Shown: piece by piece, positions 45,823 through 64,000 of the stretch
Layout: the number at the start of each line of letters is the position of its first letter
Position numbering within the stretch: position 1 is the stretch's first letter
From: Candidatus Limnocylindrales bacterium
GTDB lineage: Bacteria; Chloroflexota; Limnocylindria; Limnocylindrales; CSP1-4
Length of the DNA: 64,000 nt
NCBI GenBank assembly: GCA_038248915.1
Contig: JBBRXB010000001.1
Span: 229,097 to 293,096 of the forward strand
Reading direction: 5' to 3'
Made by a program: the position numbers and the translations under genes
Notes under the pieces: generated by a model
The model's input: only the letters and a program-made list of their open reading frames with translations
The model's database searches: none
What the model was told of the DNA's origin: nothing

Positions 45823-47979
45823 CTACGACACCCGCTTCGTGCGCCGGCTGACGAAGTCGACCAGGACGTATTCGCCGAGGTGCTCGGGGGTGGCGTAGAA
45901 CGCCCGTCCCCGGTTGAGCCGGGTCATGTGCGCGACGAAATCGGCCAGGGCGCGTGACCGTTCCAGCATGAACGTGTTGATCGTGATCCCCGCCTTGGTG
46001 CAGCGCTGGACCTCGAGCAGGGTCTCCTGGATCGTGCGCCGCGTCGGGGGGTAGTTGAACTCGACCTGGCCGTTCTCGAAATGGGCGGTCGGCTCACCAT
46101 CGGTGATGACCACGATCTCCTTGTTGACCGCTGGGTTGCGCTCCAGGATCCGGCGGGCGAGGAGCAGGCCGTGCTGCAGGTTGGTCCCGTATTCGTAGCC
46201 GTGCCAGCTCAGCTCGGCAAGGGCGCCCGGCCGGATCTCCCGCGCGTAGTAGGCGAACCCGATGACCGACAGATGGTCGCGCGGGTACTGCGTCCGGATG
46301 AGCGTGTCGAGCGCGACGGCCACCTTCTTGGCCGCCAGGAAGCAGCCGCGCAGCAGCATCGAACGGCTCATGTCCACGAGCAGCACCGTGGAGGTCTGGG
46401 TCAGCTGCTCCGTCCGGTGAACCTCGAAATCTGTCGGGGCGAGGCGGACCCGACGATCGCCGCTGGCAGCGCGTGCCGCCGGGGCGTTTTCCTCGCGGCC
46501 CAGGGCGTTGAACAGTGTCCCACGCAGGTCCAGGTGGAACGGGTCGCCGAACTCGTACGGCTTGGTCGCCTCGTCGCGTTCGCCGCCCTGCCCGCCACGA
46601 TCGATCCGGTGGCCACCGAACGCATCTCGCTGGAGCCTCGCGAACAGGTCATCGAGGACCTTCTGGCCGATCCGCCGGCTGCCGCGCGGGGTCAGCTCCA
46701 GGCGTTCGCCGTCGTGGGTCAGGTAGCCGGCCTCCTCGAGGCGGCGGGCCAGGTCGTCGAGCGCCTCGAGCTCGCGCAGCGCGTCGTCGCCCAACAGATC
46801 GCGGACCTCGTGGCGATCGATGCCGGCGAGATCGGCCGGCGACTCGACGCCCGACAGGGCGTCCTCGAGGCGGTCCATCGCCTGGAGCCGGCCGATCTGG
46901 GCGAGGGCGCCATCGAGCCCGAGCGGTTCGTCGCCACCGAACGGAACCCGGTCGCCCAAACCGCCCGGCAACAGCAGATCCAGGTTCGACGCGAGCTGCG
47001 CCAGGTCGACCAGCAGCCGGTCGTCCCGGAGCAGCGCGTCCATCATCGAGGCGAGCTCGGCCCGTTGCTCCGCGCTCATCGAGCGCAGCAGCGACTGCAT
47101 CGCGGCCATCCGCTGGGCGAGCTGGTCGATGATGTCGTCGAAGGTCTGGGCACCGGGGAAGAACTGGCCGTGCTTGGCCAGGAACTCGCTCGCGTCCGGG
47201 TCGGCGCCCCCGATGCGCTGGCGGATCAGTTCGTTGAGGTCCCGGACCATCTCGCGGTTGGCGGCCAGGTCCTCCGGCTTCATCGACTTGATGGCATCCG
47301 ACATCCCGGACACGAACTGGTCGAGGACCTGGCCCTGGAGCTTCTTGACGAGCTCGTCGAACCGCTCACGCGCGTGGGGCTCGAGGAAGTCGTAGTCCTG
47401 CAGGCCGCGGATCTTGTCACCGACATCGGTCGGCAGCGCGTCGAGCTGGTCGAGCCGCCGCGCGGCGACATCGCGGAGCATCTTCCGCAGGTCCTCGGTC
47501 GCGCCTTCGGTCTCGGCGTTCGACGCATCGTCGAGCCGGCGTTCCACCCCGGCGTGCTCCTGCTCGACGATCTCATCGAGCTCGCGGCGGATGTCGCCCA
47601 GCACGTCATCGAGCTGGTATCGCTCGAGCATCGCCTCGCGCTGGCGCTCCAGCCGCTCCAGCAGGTCCTGCAAGCCGGCCATGTCGCCACGGGTCGGGTC
47701 GCCGGTCCGCCAGCCGCGCTCCATCAGGCGGCGCAAGGCCTCGGCCAGATCGCCCTCGGCCATCATGTCGTCGGCGAGCGCGTCGAGGATCTCGTCCGCC
47801 GCGAGGTCGGCGATGTGCTGGCTGCCGTCCCAGGCCGAATAGCGCGCGGCGCGGGCGAGGGCATCCGCAGCGGACGCCGGCGACGGCGACGGCGACGGCC
47901 CCGATCCGAGGCGCGCGCGGCCCCGGGCGCCCGACCGCTCCGGCCCCAGATCCCGCGGATCCGGGGAGTAGGCGGTCAC
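45823..47979 (-). CDS. VWA (CoxE-like) domain protein with long acidic coiled-coil N-terminal region
   Basis: The C-terminal VWA domain shows VLLVDMSRSM (MIDAS DxSxS) and IVVITDGEPTAH. The GTG start overlaps the upstream stop (GTGA). Confidence 0.85.
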   Translation of the reverse strand: MTAYSPDPRDLGPERSGARGRARLGSGPSPSPSPASAADALARAARYSAWDGSQHIADLAADEILDALADDMMAEGDLAEALRRLMERGWRTGDPTRGDMAGLQDLLERLERQREAMLERYQLDDVLGDIRRELDEIVEQEHAGVERRLDDASNAETEGATEDLRKMLRDVAARRLDQLDALPTDVGDKIRGLQDYDFLEPHARERFDELVKKLQGQVLDQFVSGMSDAIKSMKPEDLAANREMVRDLNELIRQRIGGADPDASEFLAKHGQFFPGAQTFDDIIDQLAQRMAAMQSLLRSMSAEQRAELASMMDALLRDDRLLVDLAQLASNLDLLLPGGLGDRVPFGGDEPLGLDGALAQIGRLQAMDRLEDALSGVESPADLAGIDRHEVRDLLGDDALRELEALDDLARRLEEAGYLTHDGERLELTPRGSRRIGQKVLDDLFARLQRDAFGGHRIDRGGQGGERDEATKPYEFGDPFHLDLRGTLFNALGREENAPAARAASGDRRVRLAPTDFEVHRTEQLTQTSTVLLVDMSRSMLLRGCFLAAKKVAVALDTLIRTQYPRDHLSVIGFAYYAREIRPGALAELSWHGYEYGTNLQHGLLLARRILERNPAVNKEIVVITDGEPTAHFENGQVEFNYPPTRRTIQETLLEVQRCTKAGITINTFMLERSRALADFVAHMTRLNRGRAFYATPEHLGEYVLVDFVSRRTKRVS

Positions 47980-49418
47980 CGGTGGTAGACCGTCCCGCCC
48001 GGGACGCGGTCCTTGTTGAGCCGCCGTGCGAGGTGGAGACCCTCGAGCAGGAACTCGACGCCGGACGCGACGACCGCCGGCTCTTCGGCACCGTCGGTCG
48101 CATCGAACACGCCCAGCCGATCGAGCGCGAGGCCCAGCCCGGGGACTTCTCGGACGAGATGGACGTATTCGCGCGACGGCGTCCGATCGCCGGTCTCGAT
48201 CGTGAACCCATCTTCGAACGCCTCGACGACGCCGTCGAGCTCATCGATCGACACGCGCCGGTTGAACGTCGTGTGGAGCGCCTTGGTGATGAGCCGCTCG
48301 ACGATCCGTTCCTCCGGCGATTCGTCACCGGCCGTCTCGAGCTCCACCTTGCCGACCGTCGAGGCGACGACCGCGCCGAGGTCCGACACCCGCGGCGCCG
48401 CGACGGGCTCCCCGAGCCTGACCGCACGCTTCAGGGCTGCGGCCTCCAGGACCTCCGCGTTGGCGACGGTCACGCGGACGCTGACCCCGGACCGCTGGCT
48501 GATCTCCGGCGAGCGGCGGGCCATATGGGTCAACTCGGCGACGAGCTCCTCCATGAACGCCGGCACGACGACGGTAGGCGTCCCCTCGTCGGGCTCGAAG
48601 CGGTGTTTCTCCTGGCGCATGATCGCCATCTCGTGCTCAAGGGTCCGTGGGTAGTGGGTCCGGATCTGCGACCCGAGCCGGTCCTTGAGCGGGGTGATGA
48701 TCCGGCCGCGGGAGGTGTAGTCCTCCGGGTTGGCCGACGCGACGACGTACAGGTCGAGCGGCAGCCGGACGACGAAGCCACGGATCTGGACGTCGCGCTC
48801 CTCGAGGATGTTGAGCAGGCCGACCTGGATCCGCTCGGCAAGATCGGGCAGCTCGTTGATCGCCACGATCCCGCGGTTGGCGCGCGGGATGAGCCCGTAG
48901 TGCAGGGTCAGCTCGTCGGACAGGTAGCGGCCCTCGGCGACCTTGATCGGGTCGACCTCGCCGATGAGATCGGCGATGGTGATGTCCGGGGTCGCGAGCT
49001 TCTCGGCATATCGTCGGTCGCGCGGGATCCAGTCGATGGCCGTCGCGTCCCCGTCGCGCTCGACGATCGCGCGGGCGGCCGGGCTGACCGGCGCGTACGG
49101 GTCGTCGTTGAGCTCGCCGCCGCGGACCGCCGGGAGCCACGGGTCGAGCAGCCCGACCAGCAGCCGCGCCATCCGGGTCTTGGCCTGGCCGCGTTCGCCC
49201 AGGAACACGAGGTCATGGCCGGCCAGGATGGCGTTCTCGATGGCCGGGACGACCGAGTCTTCGTACCCGACGACGCCGGGGAAGATCTGTGCGCCGGTGC
49301 CGAGCCGAGCGAGCAGGTTGGCCCGCAGCTCGTCCTTGACGGTCCGGGACCGCCAGCCGGATGCGCGGAGGTCGGCCAGGGTCGCCGCCTGGGATGTGGG
49401 ACGTTCGATGGGATCCAC
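47976..49418 (-). CDS. ChlI/BchI-like (Mg-chelatase-type) AAA+ ATPase
   Basis: Matching segments are LVFLGERGQAKTRMARLL (Walker A variant), GIVAINELPDL (Walker B), LLNILEERDVQIRG and VVASANPEDY. Confidence 0.85.
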   Translation of the reverse strand: MDPIERPTSQAATLADLRASGWRSRTVKDELRANLLARLGTGAQIFPGVVGYEDSVVPAIENAILAGHDLVFLGERGQAKTRMARLLVGLLDPWLPAVRGGELNDDPYAPVSPAARAIVERDGDATAIDWIPRDRRYAEKLATPDITIADLIGEVDPIKVAEGRYLSDELTLHYGLIPRANRGIVAINELPDLAERIQVGLLNILEERDVQIRGFVVRLPLDLYVVASANPEDYTSRGRIITPLKDRLGSQIRTHYPRTLEHEMAIMRQEKHRFEPDEGTPTVVVPAFMEELVAELTHMARRSPEISQRSGVSVRVTVANAEVLEAAALKRAVRLGEPVAAPRVSDLGAVVASTVGKVELETAGDESPEERIVERLITKALHTTFNRRVSIDELDGVVEAFEDGFTIETGDRTPSREYVHLVREVPGLGLALDRLGVFDATDGAEEPAVVASGVEFLLEGLHLARRLNKDRVPGGTVYHR

Positions 49419-56446: not shown

Positions 56447-57085
56447 TCAGGCCAGGAGCTGGCCGGCACCCCGCACGAGCTCCAGCCACGGCCGCTCTCG
56501 GCCGATGGTCGTGGCGTTGCCATGGCCCGGGAAGACCGCGACGTGGTCCTCGAGCTCCGTCAGTCGCCCGAGCGAGGCCACCATCGCGTCCGGATCGCCG
56601 CCGGGCAGGTCGACCCGCCCCCAGCCGCCCTGGAACAGGGTGTCGCCACTGAACAGGAGATGCTGGTCCTCGGCCAGCAGGCACACGGAGCCCTCCGTGT
56701 GCCCGGGCGTGTGCAGGACACGCAAGCGGATCTCGCCGAAGCGGATCACGCCACCCTCCGCCAGGTCGACTGCGGGGACCGACGGCGGGATCTCGAACGG
56801 GGCGGCGATCGGGCGCGGATCGGTCAGCCGTTCGCGGTCGAGTGGATGCACGGCGATGTCGGCGCCCGTGTGCGCGGCCACCGCGGCGTTGTCGCCGATG
56901 TGGTCCCAGTGGCCGTGGCTCGAGATGATCAGCTTGAGCGTCCAGTTGCGCGCCGTGAGCTCATCGGCGATCCAGGCCAGCGATGGCGTGGCGGTGTCGA
57001 TGGCGATGGCCTCGCGCGAGCGCGGGTCGGCCAGAACGTGGACGTTGGTTGCGATCGGCCCGATGACCCGGCTGAGGCGTTCCAT
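56447..57085 (-). CDS. MBL-fold metallo-hydrolase (hydroxyacylglutathione hydrolase GloB-like)
   Basis: Motifs are SSHGHWDHIG (HxHxDH), HTPGHTEGS and FPGHG. Confidence 0.85.
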   Translation of the reverse strand: MERLSRVIGPIATNVHVLADPRSREAIAIDTATPSLAWIADELTARNWTLKLIISSHGHWDHIGDNAAVAAHTGADIAVHPLDRERLTDPRPIAAPFEIPPSVPAVDLAEGGVIRFGEIRLRVLHTPGHTEGSVCLLAEDQHLLFSGDTLFQGGWGRVDLPGGDPDAMVASLGRLTELEDHVAVFPGHGNATTIGRERPWLELVRGAGQLLA

Positions 57086-57107: not shown

Positions 57108-57554
57108 TCAGGCCTCGAGCTTCGTCCGCATGCAGTCGAAGGTCTGGCCGATCATCTTGTCCGCCGTCCCCTCGATGAGCCGCGCGCCGACGCTGGCGAG
57201 GGTGCCCGACAGGTTCACGTCGGCGGTCCAGTCCATGACCGTCGAGCCATCCCCATCCGGACCATCCGAGAGGCGCATCTCCGCCGTGGCATCGACCGCG
57301 CTGCCGGGGGCCTGGCCGTGGGCCTTGATGACCGCGCGGTCCGGCGGCTGCTGCTCGGCGAACTCCATGTTCACGTTGAACCGGGCGTTGATGAACCCGA
57401 TCCCGACCTTGGCCGTCGCCTTGAAGTGGGTATCGTCGACGACCTCGATCTTCTCGACGCCGGGGCCGCACTGGCCGACCTGGTCCGGATCGGTGACGAA
57501 GGCCCAGACCTTCTCGCGGGACGCCTTGATCGGCACGGAACCTTCGAAGTGCAT
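57108..57554 (-). CDS. coxG: CoxG-like SRPBCC protein (carbon monoxide dehydrogenase subunit G family)
   Basis: The product starts MHFEGSVPIKASREKVWAFVTDPDQV and contains ASVGARLIEGTADKMIGQ, which fits the CoxG/PF06240 pattern. It lies within the cox cluster. Confidence 0.8.
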   Translation of the reverse strand: MHFEGSVPIKASREKVWAFVTDPDQVGQCGPGVEKIEVVDDTHFKATAKVGIGFINARFNVNMEFAEQQPPDRAVIKAHGQAPGSAVDATAEMRLSDGPDGDGSTVMDWTADVNLSGTLASVGARLIEGTADKMIGQTFDCMRTKLEA

Positions 57555-57589: not shown

Positions 57590-58639
57590 CTAGTCGGGCG
57601 ATGATACCGAGGCGAGGACGTACGCCGTCGGCTCGCGGATGAAGCTCGTCCGGCAGCCCATCGAGCAGAACGCGTAGACGATCCCGTCGTGCTCGGCCAG
57701 GTGGCGTGCATGCGCCCGGTCCACGGTCATGCCACAGACCGGGTCGAGCAGCACGATATCGTCCACGACGGGCTCGAGGGCCGGCGCCGGCCCAGGTGCG
57801 CCGCCGCTCGCGCCCGCAAGCGTCGCCGGTCCGGGCGACGCCACGAAGGTCGCCGTCCCGCGCCGGACCTGGACGAGCTCGGCCAGGATCGACAGGCCGA
57901 CCTCCTCGGCGGTCTCGCCTCCGAGGTCAAGCCCGGCCGGGGCGCGGAGCGCGGCCAGCCGCTCCTCCGGGACGCCGCCCTCGTCGCGCAACCAGGCCCG
58001 CACGACGGCGGCACGGGTCGGCGAGGCGACCAGGCCGACGTACGACGCGTCACGACCAAGGGCCGCCACGAGGGCCTCTTCATCCCAGATCCCCTGCGTC
58101 GCGACGACGATGGCCGGCGCGGCACCCGGATCGAGCCCGGCGATGTCGGTGCCCGTGACGACGCGCTCCGCGCCCGGGAAGGCGTCCGGATCGGCGATCG
58201 GGTCGAAGATCGACACGCGCCAGCCGGCCGCTGACCCGAGGGCGACCAGGGCACCAGCGATCGGCGTGGTCCCGGCGACCCACAGGACCGGAGCAGGCAG
58301 ATGCGGTTCCACATAGATCTCCAGCGTGCCGCCCGAATGGCAGGTCATGACCAGCTCCACGACGCCGTCGCCGCGACGACCCTCGGCCGGCACGTCCTTC
58401 GACAGCCGCAGGAGCCGAGGCCGACCGTCCGCGAGCGCCCGCAGCGCTTCGCGCACGACGACCGGCTGGGCGCAGCTGCCGCCGACCCAGCCCTCGATCG
58501 AGCCGTCCGGGTGGATGAGCCCGGCCGCCCCGGGCCGTGCCGATGTCGGCCGCTTGACCGCCACGACCGTCGCGAACGCGAACGGACGGCCCGCGGCGTC
58601 GAGCTCGGCCGCTCGCGCGAAGATCGCCCGTGAGGTCAT
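57590..58639 (-). CDS. XdhC/CoxI-family maturation factor fused to a C-terminal YHS (TRASH-type) domain
   Basis: The XdhC_CoxI N-terminal domain shows FAFATVVAVKRPTSARPGAAGLIHPDGSIEGWVGGSC. A Rossmann-like XdhC_C domain follows. The C-terminus DPVCGMTVDRAHARHLAEHDGIVYAFCSMGC is the YHS motif pattern. ATG is at 58639. Confidence 0.8.
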   Translation of the reverse strand: MTSRAIFARAAELDAAGRPFAFATVVAVKRPTSARPGAAGLIHPDGSIEGWVGGSCAQPVVVREALRALADGRPRLLRLSKDVPAEGRRGDGVVELVMTCHSGGTLEIYVEPHLPAPVLWVAGTTPIAGALVALGSAAGWRVSIFDPIADPDAFPGAERVVTGTDIAGLDPGAAPAIVVATQGIWDEEALVAALGRDASYVGLVASPTRAAVVRAWLRDEGGVPEERLAALRAPAGLDLGGETAEEVGLSILAELVQVRRGTATFVASPGPATLAGASGGAPGPAPALEPVVDDIVLLDPVCGMTVDRAHARHLAEHDGIVYAFCSMGCRTSFIREPTAYVLASVSSPD

Positions 58640-58643
58640 GCCC

Positions 58644-61028
58644 CTACGAGATGCCCTTGTCGTGCAGGATCGCCCAGACCTTCTGGGGCGTGATCGGGAT
58701 GTCGATGTTGCGGACGCCGAGGTGCCACAGGGCATCGACGACGGCGTTGGCGATGGCCGGCGGAGCGCCCACGGTGGCCGACTCCCCCACCCCTTTTGCG
58801 CCGATCGGGTGATGCGGCGATGGGGTGGTCGTCTTGCCGGTCTCCCACGCAGGTGATTCGACAGCGGTCGGGATCAGGTAATCCATGAACGTGCCGGCCA
58901 TGTTGTTGCCCAGCTCGTCGTAGGTGATCTCCTCGTACAGCGACGGCGCGAGACCCATGTTGAGGCCACCGTGGATCTGGCCGTCGACGATCATCGGGTT
59001 GATGATGTTGCCGCAGTCGTCGATCGCGACGAAGCGGCGGACATGCACCTGCCCCGTCCCCTTGTCGATGTCGACGACGCAGATGTAGCTCCCGAACGGG
59101 AAGGTCAGGTTCGGCGGATCGTAGTAGTCGACCGCCTCGAGGCCGGCCTCCATCCCATCCGGCAGGTTCGTATAGGCCGCAAAGGCCACCTCCTGGATCG
59201 TCTTGAACCGGTCCGGCGAGCCCTTCACGGTGAATCTGCCGGGCTCCCAGTCGAGGTCGTCCTCGTTGGCCTCCAGCAAGTGGGCGGCGATCTTGCGGGC
59301 CTTGGCCAGGATCTTGCGCGAGGCCATCGCGGTCGCAGCGCCCGCGACGGGCGTCGAACGCGAGGCATACGTCCCGAGGCCGTAGGGCGCCGTGTCCGTA
59401 TCGCCCTCCTCGATCTTGATGTCCTGCACTGGGAAGCCGAGTTCCTCGGCGATGATCTGGGCGAACGTCGTCTCGTGGCCCTGGCCCTGGCTCTGGACAC
59501 CGAGCCGGGCGAGGACCTTGCCGGTCGGGTGGACGCGGATCTCGCACGAATCGAACATCTTGATGCCCAGGATGTCGAAATCATGCGATGGGCCGGCCCC
59601 GACGATCTCGGTGAAGCTGCTGATGCCGATGCCCATCAGCTCGCCGTTGGCGCGCTTGATGGCCTGCTCCTGGCGGAGCCCGGCGTAGTCGATGGTGTCC
59701 ATGGCGAGCTTGAGCGCGGCCGGATAGTTGCCCGAGTCGTACGACCAGCCGGTCGGCGTCTTGTACGGGAACTGCTCGGGCTGGATGAAGTTCTCCATCC
59801 GGAGCTGGGCCGGGTCCTTGCCGATCTGGTGGGCGAGGATATCGACCATCCGCTCGATGGCGTGGACCGCCTCGGTCACGCGGAAGGAGCAGCGGTAGGC
59901 GACGCCGCCGGGCGGCTTGTTGGTGTAGACGCCGTCGACCTCGACGAACGCGTTCGCGAAGTCGTATGAGCCGGTGATGACGTTGAACAGACCGGCCGGG
60001 TACTTCGACGGGTCGGCCGCGGCGTCCGTGTAGCCGTGGTCCGCGATGGTCTTCGCCTTGACCGAAGTGATCTTGCCGTCCTTGGTGGCGCCCATCTCGG
60101 CGTGGATGTGGTAATCGCGAGCGAACGAGTCGGCCTGCAGATTTTCTGAGCGATCCTCGATCCACTTGACGGGTTTGCCGATGAGGAAGGATGCGGCGAC
60201 GGCGAGGACATAACCTGGGTAGACCGGCACCTTGCCGCCGAACCCGCCGCCGATGTCGTGCGTCTTGACCCGGATGTTCTGCTCGGAGATGGGCAGTCCA
60301 GCCCCGCCGGCCACGAGGGCCAGCACCGTCCGGATGGCGTGCGGTGCCTGGCTGGTCATGTGCAGGGTCAGCTGGCTGCGGACGGGGTCCCAGTCGGCGA
60401 CACATCCGCACGTCTCGATCGAGGCGACGTGGATCCGGGGGATGTAGATGTCCTGTTCGATGTGGACGTCGGCCGCCGCGAGGTCGGCGTCGGTCGCCGC
60501 ACGGTCACCGGACTCCCAGTGCCAGATGTGGTTGTTCTGTTTGCCCTCGCCTCGATCGGGTCGGAGGACGAAGGCGTCGGGCTCGAGCGCCTTGTGGGGG
60601 TCGACGATGACCGGCAGCGGCTCGTAGTCGACCAGGACGGCAGCGACGCCGTCGGCGGCGATGTACTTGGTCGTGGCGATGACGGCCGCGACTTCCTGGC
60701 TCTGGTACATGACCGTGTCGGTCGGAAGCACCATCTGCATGTCGCCGGCCAGGGTCGGCATCCAGTGCAGCTTGTAGCCCTCCAGGTCCTTGCCGGTGAT
60801 GACCGCCAGGACGCCCGGGATCTTGAGCGCCTCGGTGGCGTCGATGCCCTTGATCGTGGCGTGGGCGTACGGGCTGCGAACGATGTCCAGCCACAGCTGG
60901 CCGGGCAGGTTGACGTCGTCGATGTACTCGCCGCGACCGCGGATGAAGCGCGGGTCTTCCTTGCGCTTGACCGAGTGGCCCATGCCCCCGATCTCGGCGC
61001 TGGTGCGGGGCTGTGCTTCGGTGGTCAT
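58644..61028 (-). CDS. coxL: Aerobic carbon monoxide dehydrogenase large subunit, form I signature
   Basis: This is a molybdopterin-binding XDH-family large subunit. The active-site loop reads GGVAYRCSFR, the AYxCSFR signature that distinguishes form I CoxL. ATG 61028 has GGGGAG upstream. Confidence 0.9.
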   Translation of the reverse strand: MTTEAQPRTSAEIGGMGHSVKRKEDPRFIRGRGEYIDDVNLPGQLWLDIVRSPYAHATIKGIDATEALKIPGVLAVITGKDLEGYKLHWMPTLAGDMQMVLPTDTVMYQSQEVAAVIATTKYIAADGVAAVLVDYEPLPVIVDPHKALEPDAFVLRPDRGEGKQNNHIWHWESGDRAATDADLAAADVHIEQDIYIPRIHVASIETCGCVADWDPVRSQLTLHMTSQAPHAIRTVLALVAGGAGLPISEQNIRVKTHDIGGGFGGKVPVYPGYVLAVAASFLIGKPVKWIEDRSENLQADSFARDYHIHAEMGATKDGKITSVKAKTIADHGYTDAAADPSKYPAGLFNVITGSYDFANAFVEVDGVYTNKPPGGVAYRCSFRVTEAVHAIERMVDILAHQIGKDPAQLRMENFIQPEQFPYKTPTGWSYDSGNYPAALKLAMDTIDYAGLRQEQAIKRANGELMGIGISSFTEIVGAGPSHDFDILGIKMFDSCEIRVHPTGKVLARLGVQSQGQGHETTFAQIIAEELGFPVQDIKIEEGDTDTAPYGLGTYASRSTPVAGAATAMASRKILAKARKIAAHLLEANEDDLDWEPGRFTVKGSPDRFKTIQEVAFAAYTNLPDGMEAGLEAVDYYDPPNLTFPFGSYICVVDIDKGTGQVHVRRFVAIDDCGNIINPMIVDGQIHGGLNMGLAPSLYEEITYDELGNNMAGTFMDYLIPTAVESPAWETGKTTTPSPHHPIGAKGVGESATVGAPPAIANAVVDALWHLGVRNIDIPITPQKVWAILHDKGIS

Positions 61029-61043
61029 CTCGTCACTCCCCGC

Positions 61044-61562
61044 TCAACCGGCCGCGACCGGCGCAGCGCCGGCGGTCTGGACGTCGGCGGCGGCGGCCAT
61101 GTCGCCGGCCGCCTGCTGGATCGCCTTGACGATGTTCACGTAGCCGGTGCAGCGGCACAGGTTGCCGCTGATCCCCCAGCGGATCTCCTCCTCGGATGGG
61201 TCCGGGTTGTCGGCCAGCAGCCAGGCGGCCTGCATGATCATCCCCGGGGTACAGAAGCCGCACTGCAGGCCGTGCTGGTCCCAGAACGCCTGCTGGAGCG
61301 GATGGAGGATGGCGCCATCGGCCATGCCCTCGATGGTCTTGATCTCGCGACCATCGGCCTGGACGGCGAACATCGTGCACGACTTGGCGCTCTCGCCATC
61401 GATGTGGACGGTGCACGCGCCGCAGTTGCTGGTGTCGCAGCCGACATGCGTGCCGGTCAGCCCGAGATCGTCGCGAAGGAGGTGGACGAGAAGCAGGCGC
61501 GCCTCGACGTCGGCCTCGTGCGCCTCGCCATTGACGGTGACGGTGATGTGCTGGGTGGTCAT
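61044..61562 (-). CDS. coxS: CO dehydrogenase small subunit, [2Fe-2S]x2
   Basis: The cysteine motifs are [12 protein letters not shown] and [11 protein letters not shown]...LCRCTGY. Confidence 0.92.
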
Positions 61563-61574
61563 GGTGCGGGTCTC

Positions 61575-62450
61575 CTACGCGTTCGCGAGCGCGCGTTCGG
61601 TGGCGCGGCGGAGGGCCCTGAGGGTCAACTCTGCGGCCATCGCCCGCTTGTATTCGACCGGACCGCGGACGTCGCCGGCCGGGCGGCTCTGCGCCCCGGC
61701 TGCCGCGCCCGCCTGGCGGAAGATCTCGTCCGACGGCGCCTGGCCGGCCAGGATGGCCTCGGCGTCGGTCGAGGCGAAGGGCGTCTCGGCGACACCGGTC
61801 AGCGCGACGCCGGCGGTCGTGATCCGGCCATCCGGGTCGAGCCGGACGACGGCCGCGACCCCGACCGTGGCGAAGTCACCGACCTTGCGCTCGAGCTTCT
61901 CGTAGGCACCGCCGGCGCCGCGAGGTCGTCGCGGGACGCGGATCTCGGTGAGGACCTCGGTCGGCTCGATGGCGGTCTGGAACGTGTCCACGAAGAAGTC
62001 GCGCGCGGCGATCGTGCGCTCGCCGGTCTGACTGCGGCACACGATCGTGGCATTCGTTGCGATCAGCACGGCCGGCCAGTCCGAGGCCGGGTCGGCGTGG
62101 GCGACCGAGCCACCGATCGTCCCCCAGTTGCGGACCTGCGGGTCGCCGATGAGGGCGGTCACGTCGTGCAGGAGCGGGTAGCGGTCGCGGACGATCGGGG
62201 CTTCGTGGATGCGACGGTGGGTCGCCTTGGCACCGATGCTCAGGTGATCATCGGTCTCGGCGATGTCCGCCAGGCCGGTGACGTCGCGCAGGTCGACGAG
62301 CAGGGCCGGCTGTGCGAGCCGGAGCTTGATGAACGGGATCAGGCTGTAGCCGCCGGACAGCAGCTTGGCTTCGCCCTCGCGGTCCTTGAGGATGCGGAGG
62401 ACCTCGTCCAGGTTGGCCGGACGGGCGTACTCGAACTGGCCTGGAATCAT
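61575..62450 (-). CDS. coxM: CO dehydrogenase medium subunit, FAD-binding
   Basis: The product starts [21 protein letters not shown], followed by [16 protein letters not shown] and a FAD_binding_5 / CO_deh_flav_C layout. ATG 62450 has GGAGGAGGG upstream. Confidence 0.9.
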
Positions 62451-62605
62451 CGCGCTTGGACCCTCCTCCCCGCTCGGGCGGGGGCGAATTCGGCCCGTTC
62501 GGCCCGAACAGGCACAGAGCGGTGGCGACGAGCACGGACCTCGGCCGAAGTCGCGTCTCCAGGCCACGACCGCGGGTCCGGGAAATCTAGGGATCGGATG
62601 CGGGC

Positions 62606-62635
62606 AGTATCCGTCCGGGGTCGTTCACCCGTCAA
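62606..62635 (-). promoter_or_regulatory. Candidate cox promoter TTGACG-18-GATACT
   Basis: On the minus strand the -35 is at 62635-62630 and the -10 at 62611-62606, about 150 nt upstream of the coxM ATG. Confidence 0.35.
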
Positions 62636-63447
62636 CGGGACCGCGGTCTGCCTGCGCGACGGCGCATGCCCCGACCGGCCCGGGCGCGTCCCTGAGGCGC
62701 GTCCTCGCGCCATTCGAGCGTGACCGACCTCGGGCTGGTCGGCGAGGAGGCTGCCCGATCGATGTTGCAGGGTTCTCACTCGATCGATCCGGCAGGCTGA
62801 GGCGGGGCCGGCGCCACTGACCCGGTGACCGCTCGACTTCCGCGGCGTACCAGTGATTCGGGATGTCGCGCGCCACGAAGACGTTATCGAGGAGTGTCGT
62901 CCCGGCCGGGAAGTCCGAACACCCATCGAGGATGTCGGATCGGACATCCATCGCGGACGGGAGCAGGACGTCCCAAGTGCCACGTCGGACACGGACCCGC
63001 CGCATGGGATCGTTTCCAACCCCCGGGACAAAGGCGACGAAACGGTCGACCAGGAACGACTGGGCCTCGGCCCTGGATCCGAACACCGAGACGTCGGGCA
63101 TGGTCGCGGCCGCGGGCTCGAGTTTCAGATAGGCGTGGCCGCTCATCCCGTCCGCCGGCCAAGGGGAACCTACAGCTGCCCTCCGGGTCGGCCATGAAGT
63201 TGCCGTACTCGAAGCCGAGGTGGACGTGCACGGGCTCCGGGATGACGAACGCGAAGTAGATCGTCTTCCTCCCGATCGGCAGGTCGTGGCCGACCAGCTG
63301 CCAGCCCGGCCGGACGCGCCCGATCGCCTCCGGTCCGGCGCGCCGGACGACGGCCTGCAACGTCTCGGCGGCGGCCCGGCGCTCGTCGGCATAGCCCGCA
63401 AGGAACGCCTCGCCCGGAAGGCCATCGACCGTCAGCGTGGCGGCCAC
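62625..63447 (-). pseudogene. Frameshifted mosaic: DUF1801-like N-terminal part continuing in another frame into a DUF2071-like C-terminal fragment
   Basis: The frame from GTG 63447 encodes AFLAGYADERRAAAETLQAVVRRAGPEA...IYFAFVIPEPVHVHLGFEYGNFMADPEG. Near 63150 the high-GC3 signal switches to the frame encoding MSGHAYLKLEP...FLVDRFVAFVPGVGNDPMRRVRVRRGTWDVLLPSAMDVRSDIL.... That frame then runs into a low-complexity tail with no nearby stop. Confidence 0.45.
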
Positions 63448-64000
63448 GTGACCACCCCGACCTCGCTCGGGCCACGGCCCTTGATCATCCAGCCGTCGCC
63501 GTCCGGGGCCGCCAGCTCATCGAGCGCCGACTGGAACCGGGCCCCCTTCGGTCCGTCCGGGTCGATCCATAGCTGCCGGCGGACGAAGCCGCCGAGAGCC
63601 TCACGGGTCTCGAACCGTCGCGGCTCGACGGCGATCAGGTCGACCGCGGGCGCGCGACCCCGGGCGCGCAGCAGCTCGAGGACGTCGGCAAGGGCCGGTA
63701 GCGCGACCCGCGACTCGCCATGGACCGGCGGCCAGAACGGGTCCGCGACTGACGCCGGGACGCGAGTCATCAGGACCGCCACGCACAGGCGCTCGGCCGC
63801 AGCCTCCAGCGCGCGGAGGAATGGCCCGATCGCCTCGATGTCGTAGCCGACGTGGGCGATCAGCGCGACGTCCGCGTCGAGATCGGCGACGGATCGGTCG
63901 TCGGCGAACGGCCAGCGCGCCTCGATGGTCCGGACGTTCTCGATGGCATAGTCGTCGGCGATCTCGCGCAGCCCGTCGAGCATCGAGCGCGACGCATCGA
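63432..64000 (-). CDS. Probable class I SAM-dependent methyltransferase (5' end outside window)
   Basis: The frame is open to the window end. The visible part (DADVALIAHVGYDIEAIGPFLRALEAAAERLCVAVLM...) resembles the post-motif II/III region of Methyltransf_11/25-type enzymes. The SAM-binding motif I is not visible. Confidence 0.5.
   Translation of the reverse strand, partial: DASRSMLDGLREIADDYAIENVRTIEARWPFADDRSVADLDADVALIAHVGYDIEAIGPFLRALEAAAERLCVAVLMTRVPASVADPFWPPVHGESRVALPALADVLELLRARGRAPAVDLIAVEPRRFETREALGGFVRRQLWIDPDGPKGARFQSALDELAAPDGDGWMIKGRGPSEVGVVTWPPR

Follow-up and report, generated by a model that had tools for sequence, protein, structure and literature searches.

A CoxF-type maturation factor with a tethered YHS domain in a form I CO dehydrogenase operon: a candidate arm for copper delivery

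Aerobic CO dehydrogenase takes up a large share of atmospheric CO. The route by which copper reaches its Mo-S-Cu site is described by a single model, drawn from mutants of one alphaproteobacterium and from short motifs in a CoxF protein that has no recognisable metal domain. A gene that directly follows coxL in a Chloroflexota genome raises the question of whether CoxF may carry a copper-handling module of its own. This gene, hereafter coxF-YHS, lies in a 64,000-nucleotide stretch of a Candidatus Limnocylindrales bacterium (the window, G000:C1:229097-293096) and encodes an XdhC-family protein that ends in a YHS domain. In Oligotropha (Afipia) carboxidovorans, whose CoxF is the only family member with genetics, coxE and coxF mutants make a CO dehydrogenase without Cu, and the authors proposed CoxF as a Cu(I) escort; a putative Cu-binding motif, MCPSHGTM, was placed in CoxF by Pelzmann et al. 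2014 (both PMC4240915). We conclude with near certainty that the window protein is orthologous to CoxF and bears its YHS domain on a tether, and we infer that this tail is probably a tethered Cu(I)-handling arm for the assembly of [CuSMoO2].

A CoxF orthologue with an added domain

The gene is read on the minus strand, a plus-strand reading of the same interval being ruled out by stops throughout. It starts with an ATG at position 58639, four nucleotides past the coxL stop codon (TAG, 58644-58646), and its own TAG occupies 57590-57592. A preliminary description of the window had reported an XdhC/CoxI-type protein with a C-terminal YHS domain right after coxL. Pfam searches bore this out: three domains scored above their cut-offs (Table 1), XdhC_CoxI and XdhC_C stood in the expected order, both above gathering scores, and the C-terminal peptide was present as it had been quoted. 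Cys56, within the conserved GGSC motif of the XdhC_CoxI domain, is at least 90% conserved in an alignment of 87 fusion proteins of 30-50% identity. A second conserved motif, MTCHSGG with Cys100, lies just upstream of the XdhC_C domain, and BLASTP and alignment blocks place this stretch against the CoxF region that holds MCPSHGTM.

In order to identify the protein more closely, CoxF and CoxI from plasmid pHCG3 of Oligotropha strain OM5 were used as references. Aligned along the whole of CoxF, the window protein showed 42% identity to it (expectation value, E, 2e-47), as against 26% to CoxI (E 2e-14), which identifies it as an orthologue of CoxF with an extra tail. The earlier assignment to an XdhC-like maturation factor was thus right as to the family, but the protein is specifically CoxF and not a generic XdhC. 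The two CoxF proteins have in common the GGxC and M-x-C-x-S-x-G motifs and the membership of their clusters (form I coxMSL, coxD, coxE, coxG), whereas gene order differs, being coxL-D-E-F-G in Oligotropha and coxD-E-xdhC-mocA ... coxM-S-L-F-G here. Unlike the window protein, Oligotropha CoxF (280 residues) ends about 15 residues past its Rossmann domain, with neither a YHS or HMA domain nor a Cys-Cys tail.

An AlphaFold2 model was built from the 87-row alignment. The predicted local distance difference test (pLDDT) exceeded 90 in the XdhC body and fell below 50 in the linker (residues 268-293), after which residues 296-345 formed a confident small domain. The pLDDT of the YHS domain was about 90 in this model, and the tail folded alone reached 84. 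According to Foldseek, the body is closest to 2WE7/2WE8 (E 2e-19), the Mycobacterium smegmatis homologue of Rv0376c, which has the same two-domain fold at 30-32% identity over about 270 columns, and to 3ON5 (E 4e-17), the XdhC-family protein BH1974 of Bacillus halodurans, again with this fold. The YHS match itself is marginal in the window protein (32.0 bits against a PF04945 cut-off of 30.3); orthologues score higher (38-45 bits, as with 38.6 and 45.2), and one of them also matches the TRASH model PF24273. Four residues of the tail, C302, F324, C325 and C329, do not vary among the 87 fusions, and conservation is 90% or more at D299, P300 and M304.

XdhC of Rhodobacter capsulatus and the solved XdhC structures carry the same Pfam domains as the body but, unlike the window protein, no C-terminal metal-binding domain; these XdhC proteins bind or protect the sulfurated molybdenum cofactor (Moco) for copper-free enzymes. 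In the present cluster this generic role is probably filled by a second XdhC encoded beside coxE, which is tail-less, contains two N-domains and resembles Oligotropha CoxF no more closely.

Distribution of the tail and its variants

The enzyme encoded next to coxF-YHS had been described as a form I CO dehydrogenase, and this was confirmed by its TIGR02416 score (Table 1) and by the active-site loop GGVAYRCSFR, which includes AYRCSFR. We asked how often such enzymes are accompanied by a tail-bearing CoxF. Form I CoxL (TIGR02416) and a profile of the fusion were searched separately in whole-genome samples, a procedure less biased than ranking by similarity. Among 301 Chloroflexota genomes, 38 encoded a form I enzyme and all 38 the full-length fusion. 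In 36 of them the fusion directly followed coxL in the same orientation (gap 26-1075 bp, median 106), and in the other two the genes were split by contig ends. Among the matches listed for this phylum, the only further one bearing a tail stood at the contig edge of a 73%-complete genome. The 251 Actinomycetota genomes included 50 with form I, of which 47 had the tail, the exceptions being one tail-less genome and two cut by contig ends; this count takes in two unpublished genomes (G392 and G424) and becomes 45 of 48 when they are left out. By contrast with both phyla, only two or three of the 16 form I genomes found among 401 Pseudomonadota carried the tail, and 13 had a tail-less CoxF as in Oligotropha.

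A feature of the Actinomycetota matches may be recorded here. In nine genomes (G325, G340, G371, G373, G454, G467, G480, G519 and G532), CoxF-YHS matched the profile in two pieces, at about 3-143 and 170-330, and this points to a stretch, inserted or diverged, that separates the N-domain from the Rossmann domain in one actinobacterial lineage.

Plasmid records were searched as well. Of the 74 that matched XdhC at all, only 6 covered the tail, and all six were form I cox clusters, from Thermomicrobium roseum, two Caballeronia, Paraburkholderia aromaticivorans, Deinococcus sp. AJ005 and the archaeon Natronorubrum bangense. The remaining 13 form I plasmids, 12 alphaproteobacterial and one from Nonomuraea, carried a tail-less CoxF. 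Among protein clusters at 50% identity, 14,558 representatives matched at E ≤0.001 and 510 at ≤1e-30. A hidden Markov model of the tail detected it in 121 of the best 150 matches, a ranking that favours tails since the query bears one (a regular expression, which missed the query itself, found 98).

At least 560 XdhC relatives containing DPVCGMTV came out of a scan of species genomes, from Chloroflexota, Actinomycetota, Dormibacterota, Acidobacteriota, Myxococcota, Gammaproteobacteria, Gemmatimonadota, Deinococcota and Bacteroidota. We examined the best 80 of these loci, covering some ten phyla; the search alignment was restricted to rows with DPVCGMTV, and the set is thereby biased to canonical tails. 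A CoxL with Y.CSFR was encoded at 59 loci, immediately upstream of the fusion in 51 of those, and at 12 more a fragment of a closely related CoxL stood at the contig end, so that a form I CoxL stood beside the fusion in 71 of 80. Seven loci were too short to judge, yet held coxD, coxE or coxG, and one had coxD, coxE and coxG with no coxL within 10 kb. Distant fusions (33-36% identity) likewise follow coxE.

The last of the 80 loci is an orphan. This XdhC-YHS gene, in an Acidimicrobiaceae metagenome-assembled genome (L039:9755-10963), has no cox gene within 10 kb, the only such case; its neighbours encode an amidohydrolase, a periplasmic binding protein and a DUF202 protein.

In Chloroflexota and Actinomycetota most CoxF proteins are of the CoxF-YHS form, and in all samples this form goes with form I coxL. 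The preliminary description had proposed a survey of this kind and had named an equal frequency of the fusion beside molybdoenzymes other than CO dehydrogenase as a result that would count against it; no sample showed this, within searches that a tail on an XdhC very unlike CoxF could have escaped. The fusion is not peculiar to this operon, and the copy in the window is an ordinary member of the CoxF-YHS variant.

The position occupied by the YHS domain can be taken by other modules. CoxF of Rhodothermus marinus, from a coxM-S-L-G-D-E-F-mocA cluster whose CoxL loop reads AYRCSFR, ends in an HMA domain (PF00403, 40.9 bits, GMSCAHC) and has no YHS domain. The HMA fold is that of classical Cu(I) chaperones. 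This CopZ/Atx1-type domain differs in fold from YHS, being ferredoxin-like with an MxCxxC motif, but it stands at the same position in the same kind of cox cluster and offers a Cys-based Cu(I) loop for comparison. The XdhC-HMA architecture comprises about 40 clusters at 90% identity, with MxCxxC, in the form M-[ST/H]-C-x-[H/Q]-C, kept in 38 of 38, and the nearest relatives of the HMA-tailed CoxF proteins by core sequence bear YHS. In further CoxF relatives, one of them within a coxD-E-F-mocA-xdhC row, a long low-complexity linker simply ends in Cys-Cys. Triple fusions of MocA (cytidylyltransferase), CoxF and YHS, 530-565 residues long, were also found (L009:3940-5628; P0189, P0139, P0182); one adjoins a CoxL with TYRCSFR, with a form II set (AYRGAGR) 5 kb away.

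A FastTree phylogeny of the XdhC core placed the tail-less, HMA and Cys-Cys forms scattered inside YHS-bearing groups, so that at least 10 changes of state are needed. Oligotropha CoxF nested among the fusions, and CoxI-like proteins formed the outgroup (support 96). Because the sample was picked for its likeness to a query with a tail, and support stays under 80 at many forks, this tree gives no firm ground for a statement on gain or loss of the tail or on the ancestral state. Two metagenomic CoxF-like proteins of 448-460 residues (P0219 and P0229), with two XdhC_C domains and no tail, fell at the base of the CoxF group.

What the tail may do

We favour a tethered Cu(I) arm because the tail goes only with the one member of the enzyme family that depends on copper, because its Asp/Cys set is conserved, because its anatomy is that of a swinging arm, because it is interchanged with HMA and Cys-Cys tails, and because Oligotropha coxE and coxF mutants make a Cu-free enzyme (PMC4240915). 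The preliminary description had put the fusion forward as a candidate copper-delivery module; the association with form I coxL and the HMA swap speak for this, and the copper role is what we infer from them.

The Asp/Cys set is known from the class III adenylyl cyclase of Mycobacterium phlei, a copper-activated enzyme in whose YHS domain one Asp and three Cys were proposed as ligands (PMC4626032). The residues at these positions in the window protein, D299, C302, C325 and C329, are all present. The cyclase domain (Linder 2015) is likewise C-terminal on a linker, with a copper-specific effect (PMC4626032); it is a sensor, on a linker of 8 residues, that switches an enzyme on, whereas the window domain hangs on a tether of about 30 residues from a cofactor chaperone. 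Since this is the only YHS domain with biochemistry in the literature searched (PMC4626032), one may suppose that the CoxF tail is also a copper-dependent switch: binding of Cu would turn CoxF on, the enzyme would mature only when copper is available, and the tail would donate nothing. Such a sensor shares the copper-binding premise of the arm and differs only in what follows binding. It seems improbable, as the long disordered tether fits a swinging arm better than an allosteric switch and an HMA domain at the tail position is typical of metal transfer.

The cysteines of the tail could also relay sulfur, as persulfide, for the bridging sulfido ligand, or shield Mo=S, with no carriage of copper. 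Cys-rich flexible tails are typical of persulfide carriers, and the active site requires a bridging S besides Cu. XdhC proteins have moreover been tied to sulfuration and to the protection of sulfurated Moco (PMC2997495; PMC4240915). However, all members of the xanthine oxidase family need the sulfido ligand, yet the XdhC proteins sampled for enzymes other than CO dehydrogenase and the second XdhC of the present cluster have no such tail, and the HMA domains bind metal and do not carry sulfur. In Oligotropha, sulfuration depends on CoxD, and coxE and coxF mutants retain cyanolysable sulfur (PMC4240915). These observations make a sulfur relay very improbable.

Structural comparison of the tail raises another possibility. 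The best matches of the tail model, all weak (Foldseek E about 0.4-1, Z ≤5.2), were the YHS-like domains that end the hydroxylases of phenol, toluene and methane monooxygenases (alpha subunits, 2INP, 2INN and 1FYZ) and the TRASH fold of eL24. Sequence searches of the PDB were also weak (best E 0.06 or worse), with an F-C-x3-C-x3-F-x3-P motif shared by phenol hydroxylase. These domains are integral structural parts, whereas the window YHS is a tethered module. The tail could then be a zinc ribbon with a structural role, or a module that docks CoxF onto a partner such as apo-CoxL, CoxE or CoxD without need of a metal, with copper arriving by another route.

Several points weigh against a copper arm, the first three of them being in favour of a zinc or docking role. 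To our knowledge, the monooxygenase and eL24 domains are structural, either Zn-bound or metal-free, and none is a known copper carrier. The CoxF of Deinococcus sp. AJ005 plasmid p380k (L014:6989-8050) has kept a degenerate domain, with PVDGE for PVCGM and FTCANC for FCCxxC, so that only one is left of the three Cys that are invariant elsewhere. A tail-less CoxF works in Oligotropha and suffices in most of the sampled Pseudomonadota, so that the chemistry can proceed without the tail, which is dispensable in Alphaproteobacteria. The YHS score of the window protein barely exceeds its cut-off, and position 326 is Ser in this protein, where most relatives have a fourth Cys. Finally, the samples of fusions were partly picked by similarity to a tail-bearing query, and a YHS domain on a distant XdhC other than CoxF could escape them. 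On the other hand, a docking module would not be expected to be exchanged for an HMA domain at the same position and on the same kind of linker, with its Cu(I) loop MxCxHC kept in all 38 proteins, nor for a bare Cys-Cys tail, and the confinement of the tail, in every sample, to the single family member that needs copper also speaks against it. We consider this alternative unlikely.

According to the favoured copper-arm reading, the YHS domain would bind Cu(I) via thiolates and act as a tethered capture-and-delivery arm. The recipient of the copper would be either the CoxF body, by way of its conserved C56 and C100, or [MoO2(SH)] in folded apo-CoxL with no intermediate, and its delivery to the sulfurated Mo site would complete the [CuSMoO2] cluster. 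CoxD (AAA+) and CoxE (VWA), which are encoded just upstream, may act at the same stage. Ordinary supply of the molybdopterin cytosine dinucleotide form of Moco would be left to the second, tail-less XdhC together with a MocA-like enzyme. As part of this explanation, it is reasonably likely that coxF-YHS is translationally coupled to coxL. A broader proposal is that the CoxF appendage, whether YHS, HMA or Cys-Cys, is a dedicated copper donor, an interchangeable Cu(I) arm, and that the tail-less CoxF of Oligotropha is a derived exception; to this we would give an even chance.

The cox operon and the bearing of the fusion on CO oxidisers

The features of the operon are collected in Table 1.

Table 1. 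Positions of the cox genes and of the domains of coxF-YHS, in window coordinates.
Feature	Position	Strand	Evidence
coxF-YHS, 349-residue CoxF-type XdhC-family maturation factor with C-terminal YHS domain	57590..58639	-	Open reading frame, translation, Pfam
XdhC_CoxI N-terminal domain, residues 15-78	58406..58597	-	PF02625, 72 bits (cut-off 24.3)
XdhC_C Rossmann domain, residues 119-255	57875..58285	-	PF13478, 95 bits (cut-off 29.7)
Flexible Gly/Pro/Ala-rich linker, residues ~261-293	57761..57859	-	AlphaFold2, low pLDDT
YHS domain, residues 299-341, D299-P-V-C302-G-M304 ... F324-C325-S-M-G-C329	57617..57745	-	PF04945
coxL, form I (Mo-Cu) CO dehydrogenase large subunit	58644..61028	-	TIGR02416, 1205 bits (cut-off 991)
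coxS, [2Fe-2S] small subunit	61044..61562	-	Pfam Fer2_2 and Fer2
coxM, FAD-binding medium subunit, longest open reading frame	61575..62567	-	Pfam FAD_binding_5 and CO_deh_flav_C
coxG (SRPBCC/CoxG)	57108..57554	-	PF06240, 130 bits
Metallo-beta-lactamase-fold gene	56447..57085	-	Pfam Lactamase_B, 96 bits
MocA-like (NTP_transf_3) and methyltransferase gene, 3' part	63432..64000, continuing past the window end	-	Pfam

The order of the operon is coxM-S-L-F-G. The true start of coxM probably lies near 62450, because its first Pfam domain begins at residue 44. The coxG gene follows coxF-YHS after 35 nucleotides and is preceded by GGAGG, and the metallo-beta-lactamase-fold gene is the last on the minus strand ahead of a convergent GNAT gene. 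A relative with an 85%-identical fusion protein, encoded on a 2.2-Mb contig, shows the same layout. Between coxM and the MocA-like gene, some 0.8 kb (62625-63431) contained no open reading frame matching Pfam or NCBIfam. Near this operon we found no copy of the HTH_20-AHSA1 regulator that a close relative has at that spot (L003:4934-5692).

The preliminary description had taken coxD and coxE to be absent. Both lie just past the window end, on the same strand and upstream of coxM, as was seen when the DNA beyond the right end was examined (G000:C1:290000-306000; a position in this piece plus 60903 gives the window coordinate). There the minus strand continues with the second XdhC gene (370 residues), coxE (VWA_CoxE, 208 bits) and coxD (MoxR AAA). 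The set formed with the MocA-like gene extends from 0.9 to 7 kb upstream of coxM, with coxD and coxE at 3-7 kb. The ChlI-like/VWA pair that had been noted at a distance does exist, as a ChlI/MoxR-like AAA gene (47976-49418, minus strand) and a gene for a 718-residue VWA_2 protein (45823-47979, minus strand), but its matches are to generic AAA and VWA models and not to VWA_CoxE. It is not a cox pair, and we rejected it as a stand-in for coxD and coxE, given that the true CoxD and VWA_CoxE genes adjoin the operon.

Two other genes of this genome were noted. Beyond the window, at a distance of about 37 kb from the form I operon, another gene for a CoxL-like protein (G000:C1:326607-328940, minus strand) scores 749 bits with TIGR02416, below the form I cut-off, and is thus form II-like. 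On another contig (G000:C2, about 254270-254480, plus strand), a stand-alone YHS protein of about 70 residues (AIDPVCGMEV ... YWFCGRGC; PF04945, 43.5 bits) is encoded, not near any cox gene.

A literature search, with subscription journals outside its coverage, found no paper that mentions a YHS or TRASH domain alongside XdhC or CoxF, and a 2025 paper on the M. smegmatis CO dehydrogenase contains no discussion of XdhC, CoxD or CoxE. The architecture is already annotated automatically in public databases, under the names 'XdhC family protein' or 'xanthine dehydrogenase accessory factor'.

Most CO oxidisers outside the group of the mutant-based model, among them those of Chloroflexota, Actinomycetota, Deinococcota, Burkholderiaceae, Bacteroidota and haloarchaea, have a recognised metal-binding domain on CoxF. 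The YHS tail, together with the HMA domain of close relatives, lends independent support, at the level of sequence, to the proposal that CoxF is a copper carrier. The question also becomes open to ordinary tools, namely a domain of about 50 residues, mutants and domain swaps. The tail may matter for the heterologous production of active Mo-Cu CO dehydrogenase, which has so far been hard to achieve. If the broader proposal of an interchangeable Cu(I) arm is true, CoxF would be the first cofactor chaperone known to join a body that binds a pterin cofactor with a metallochaperone domain.

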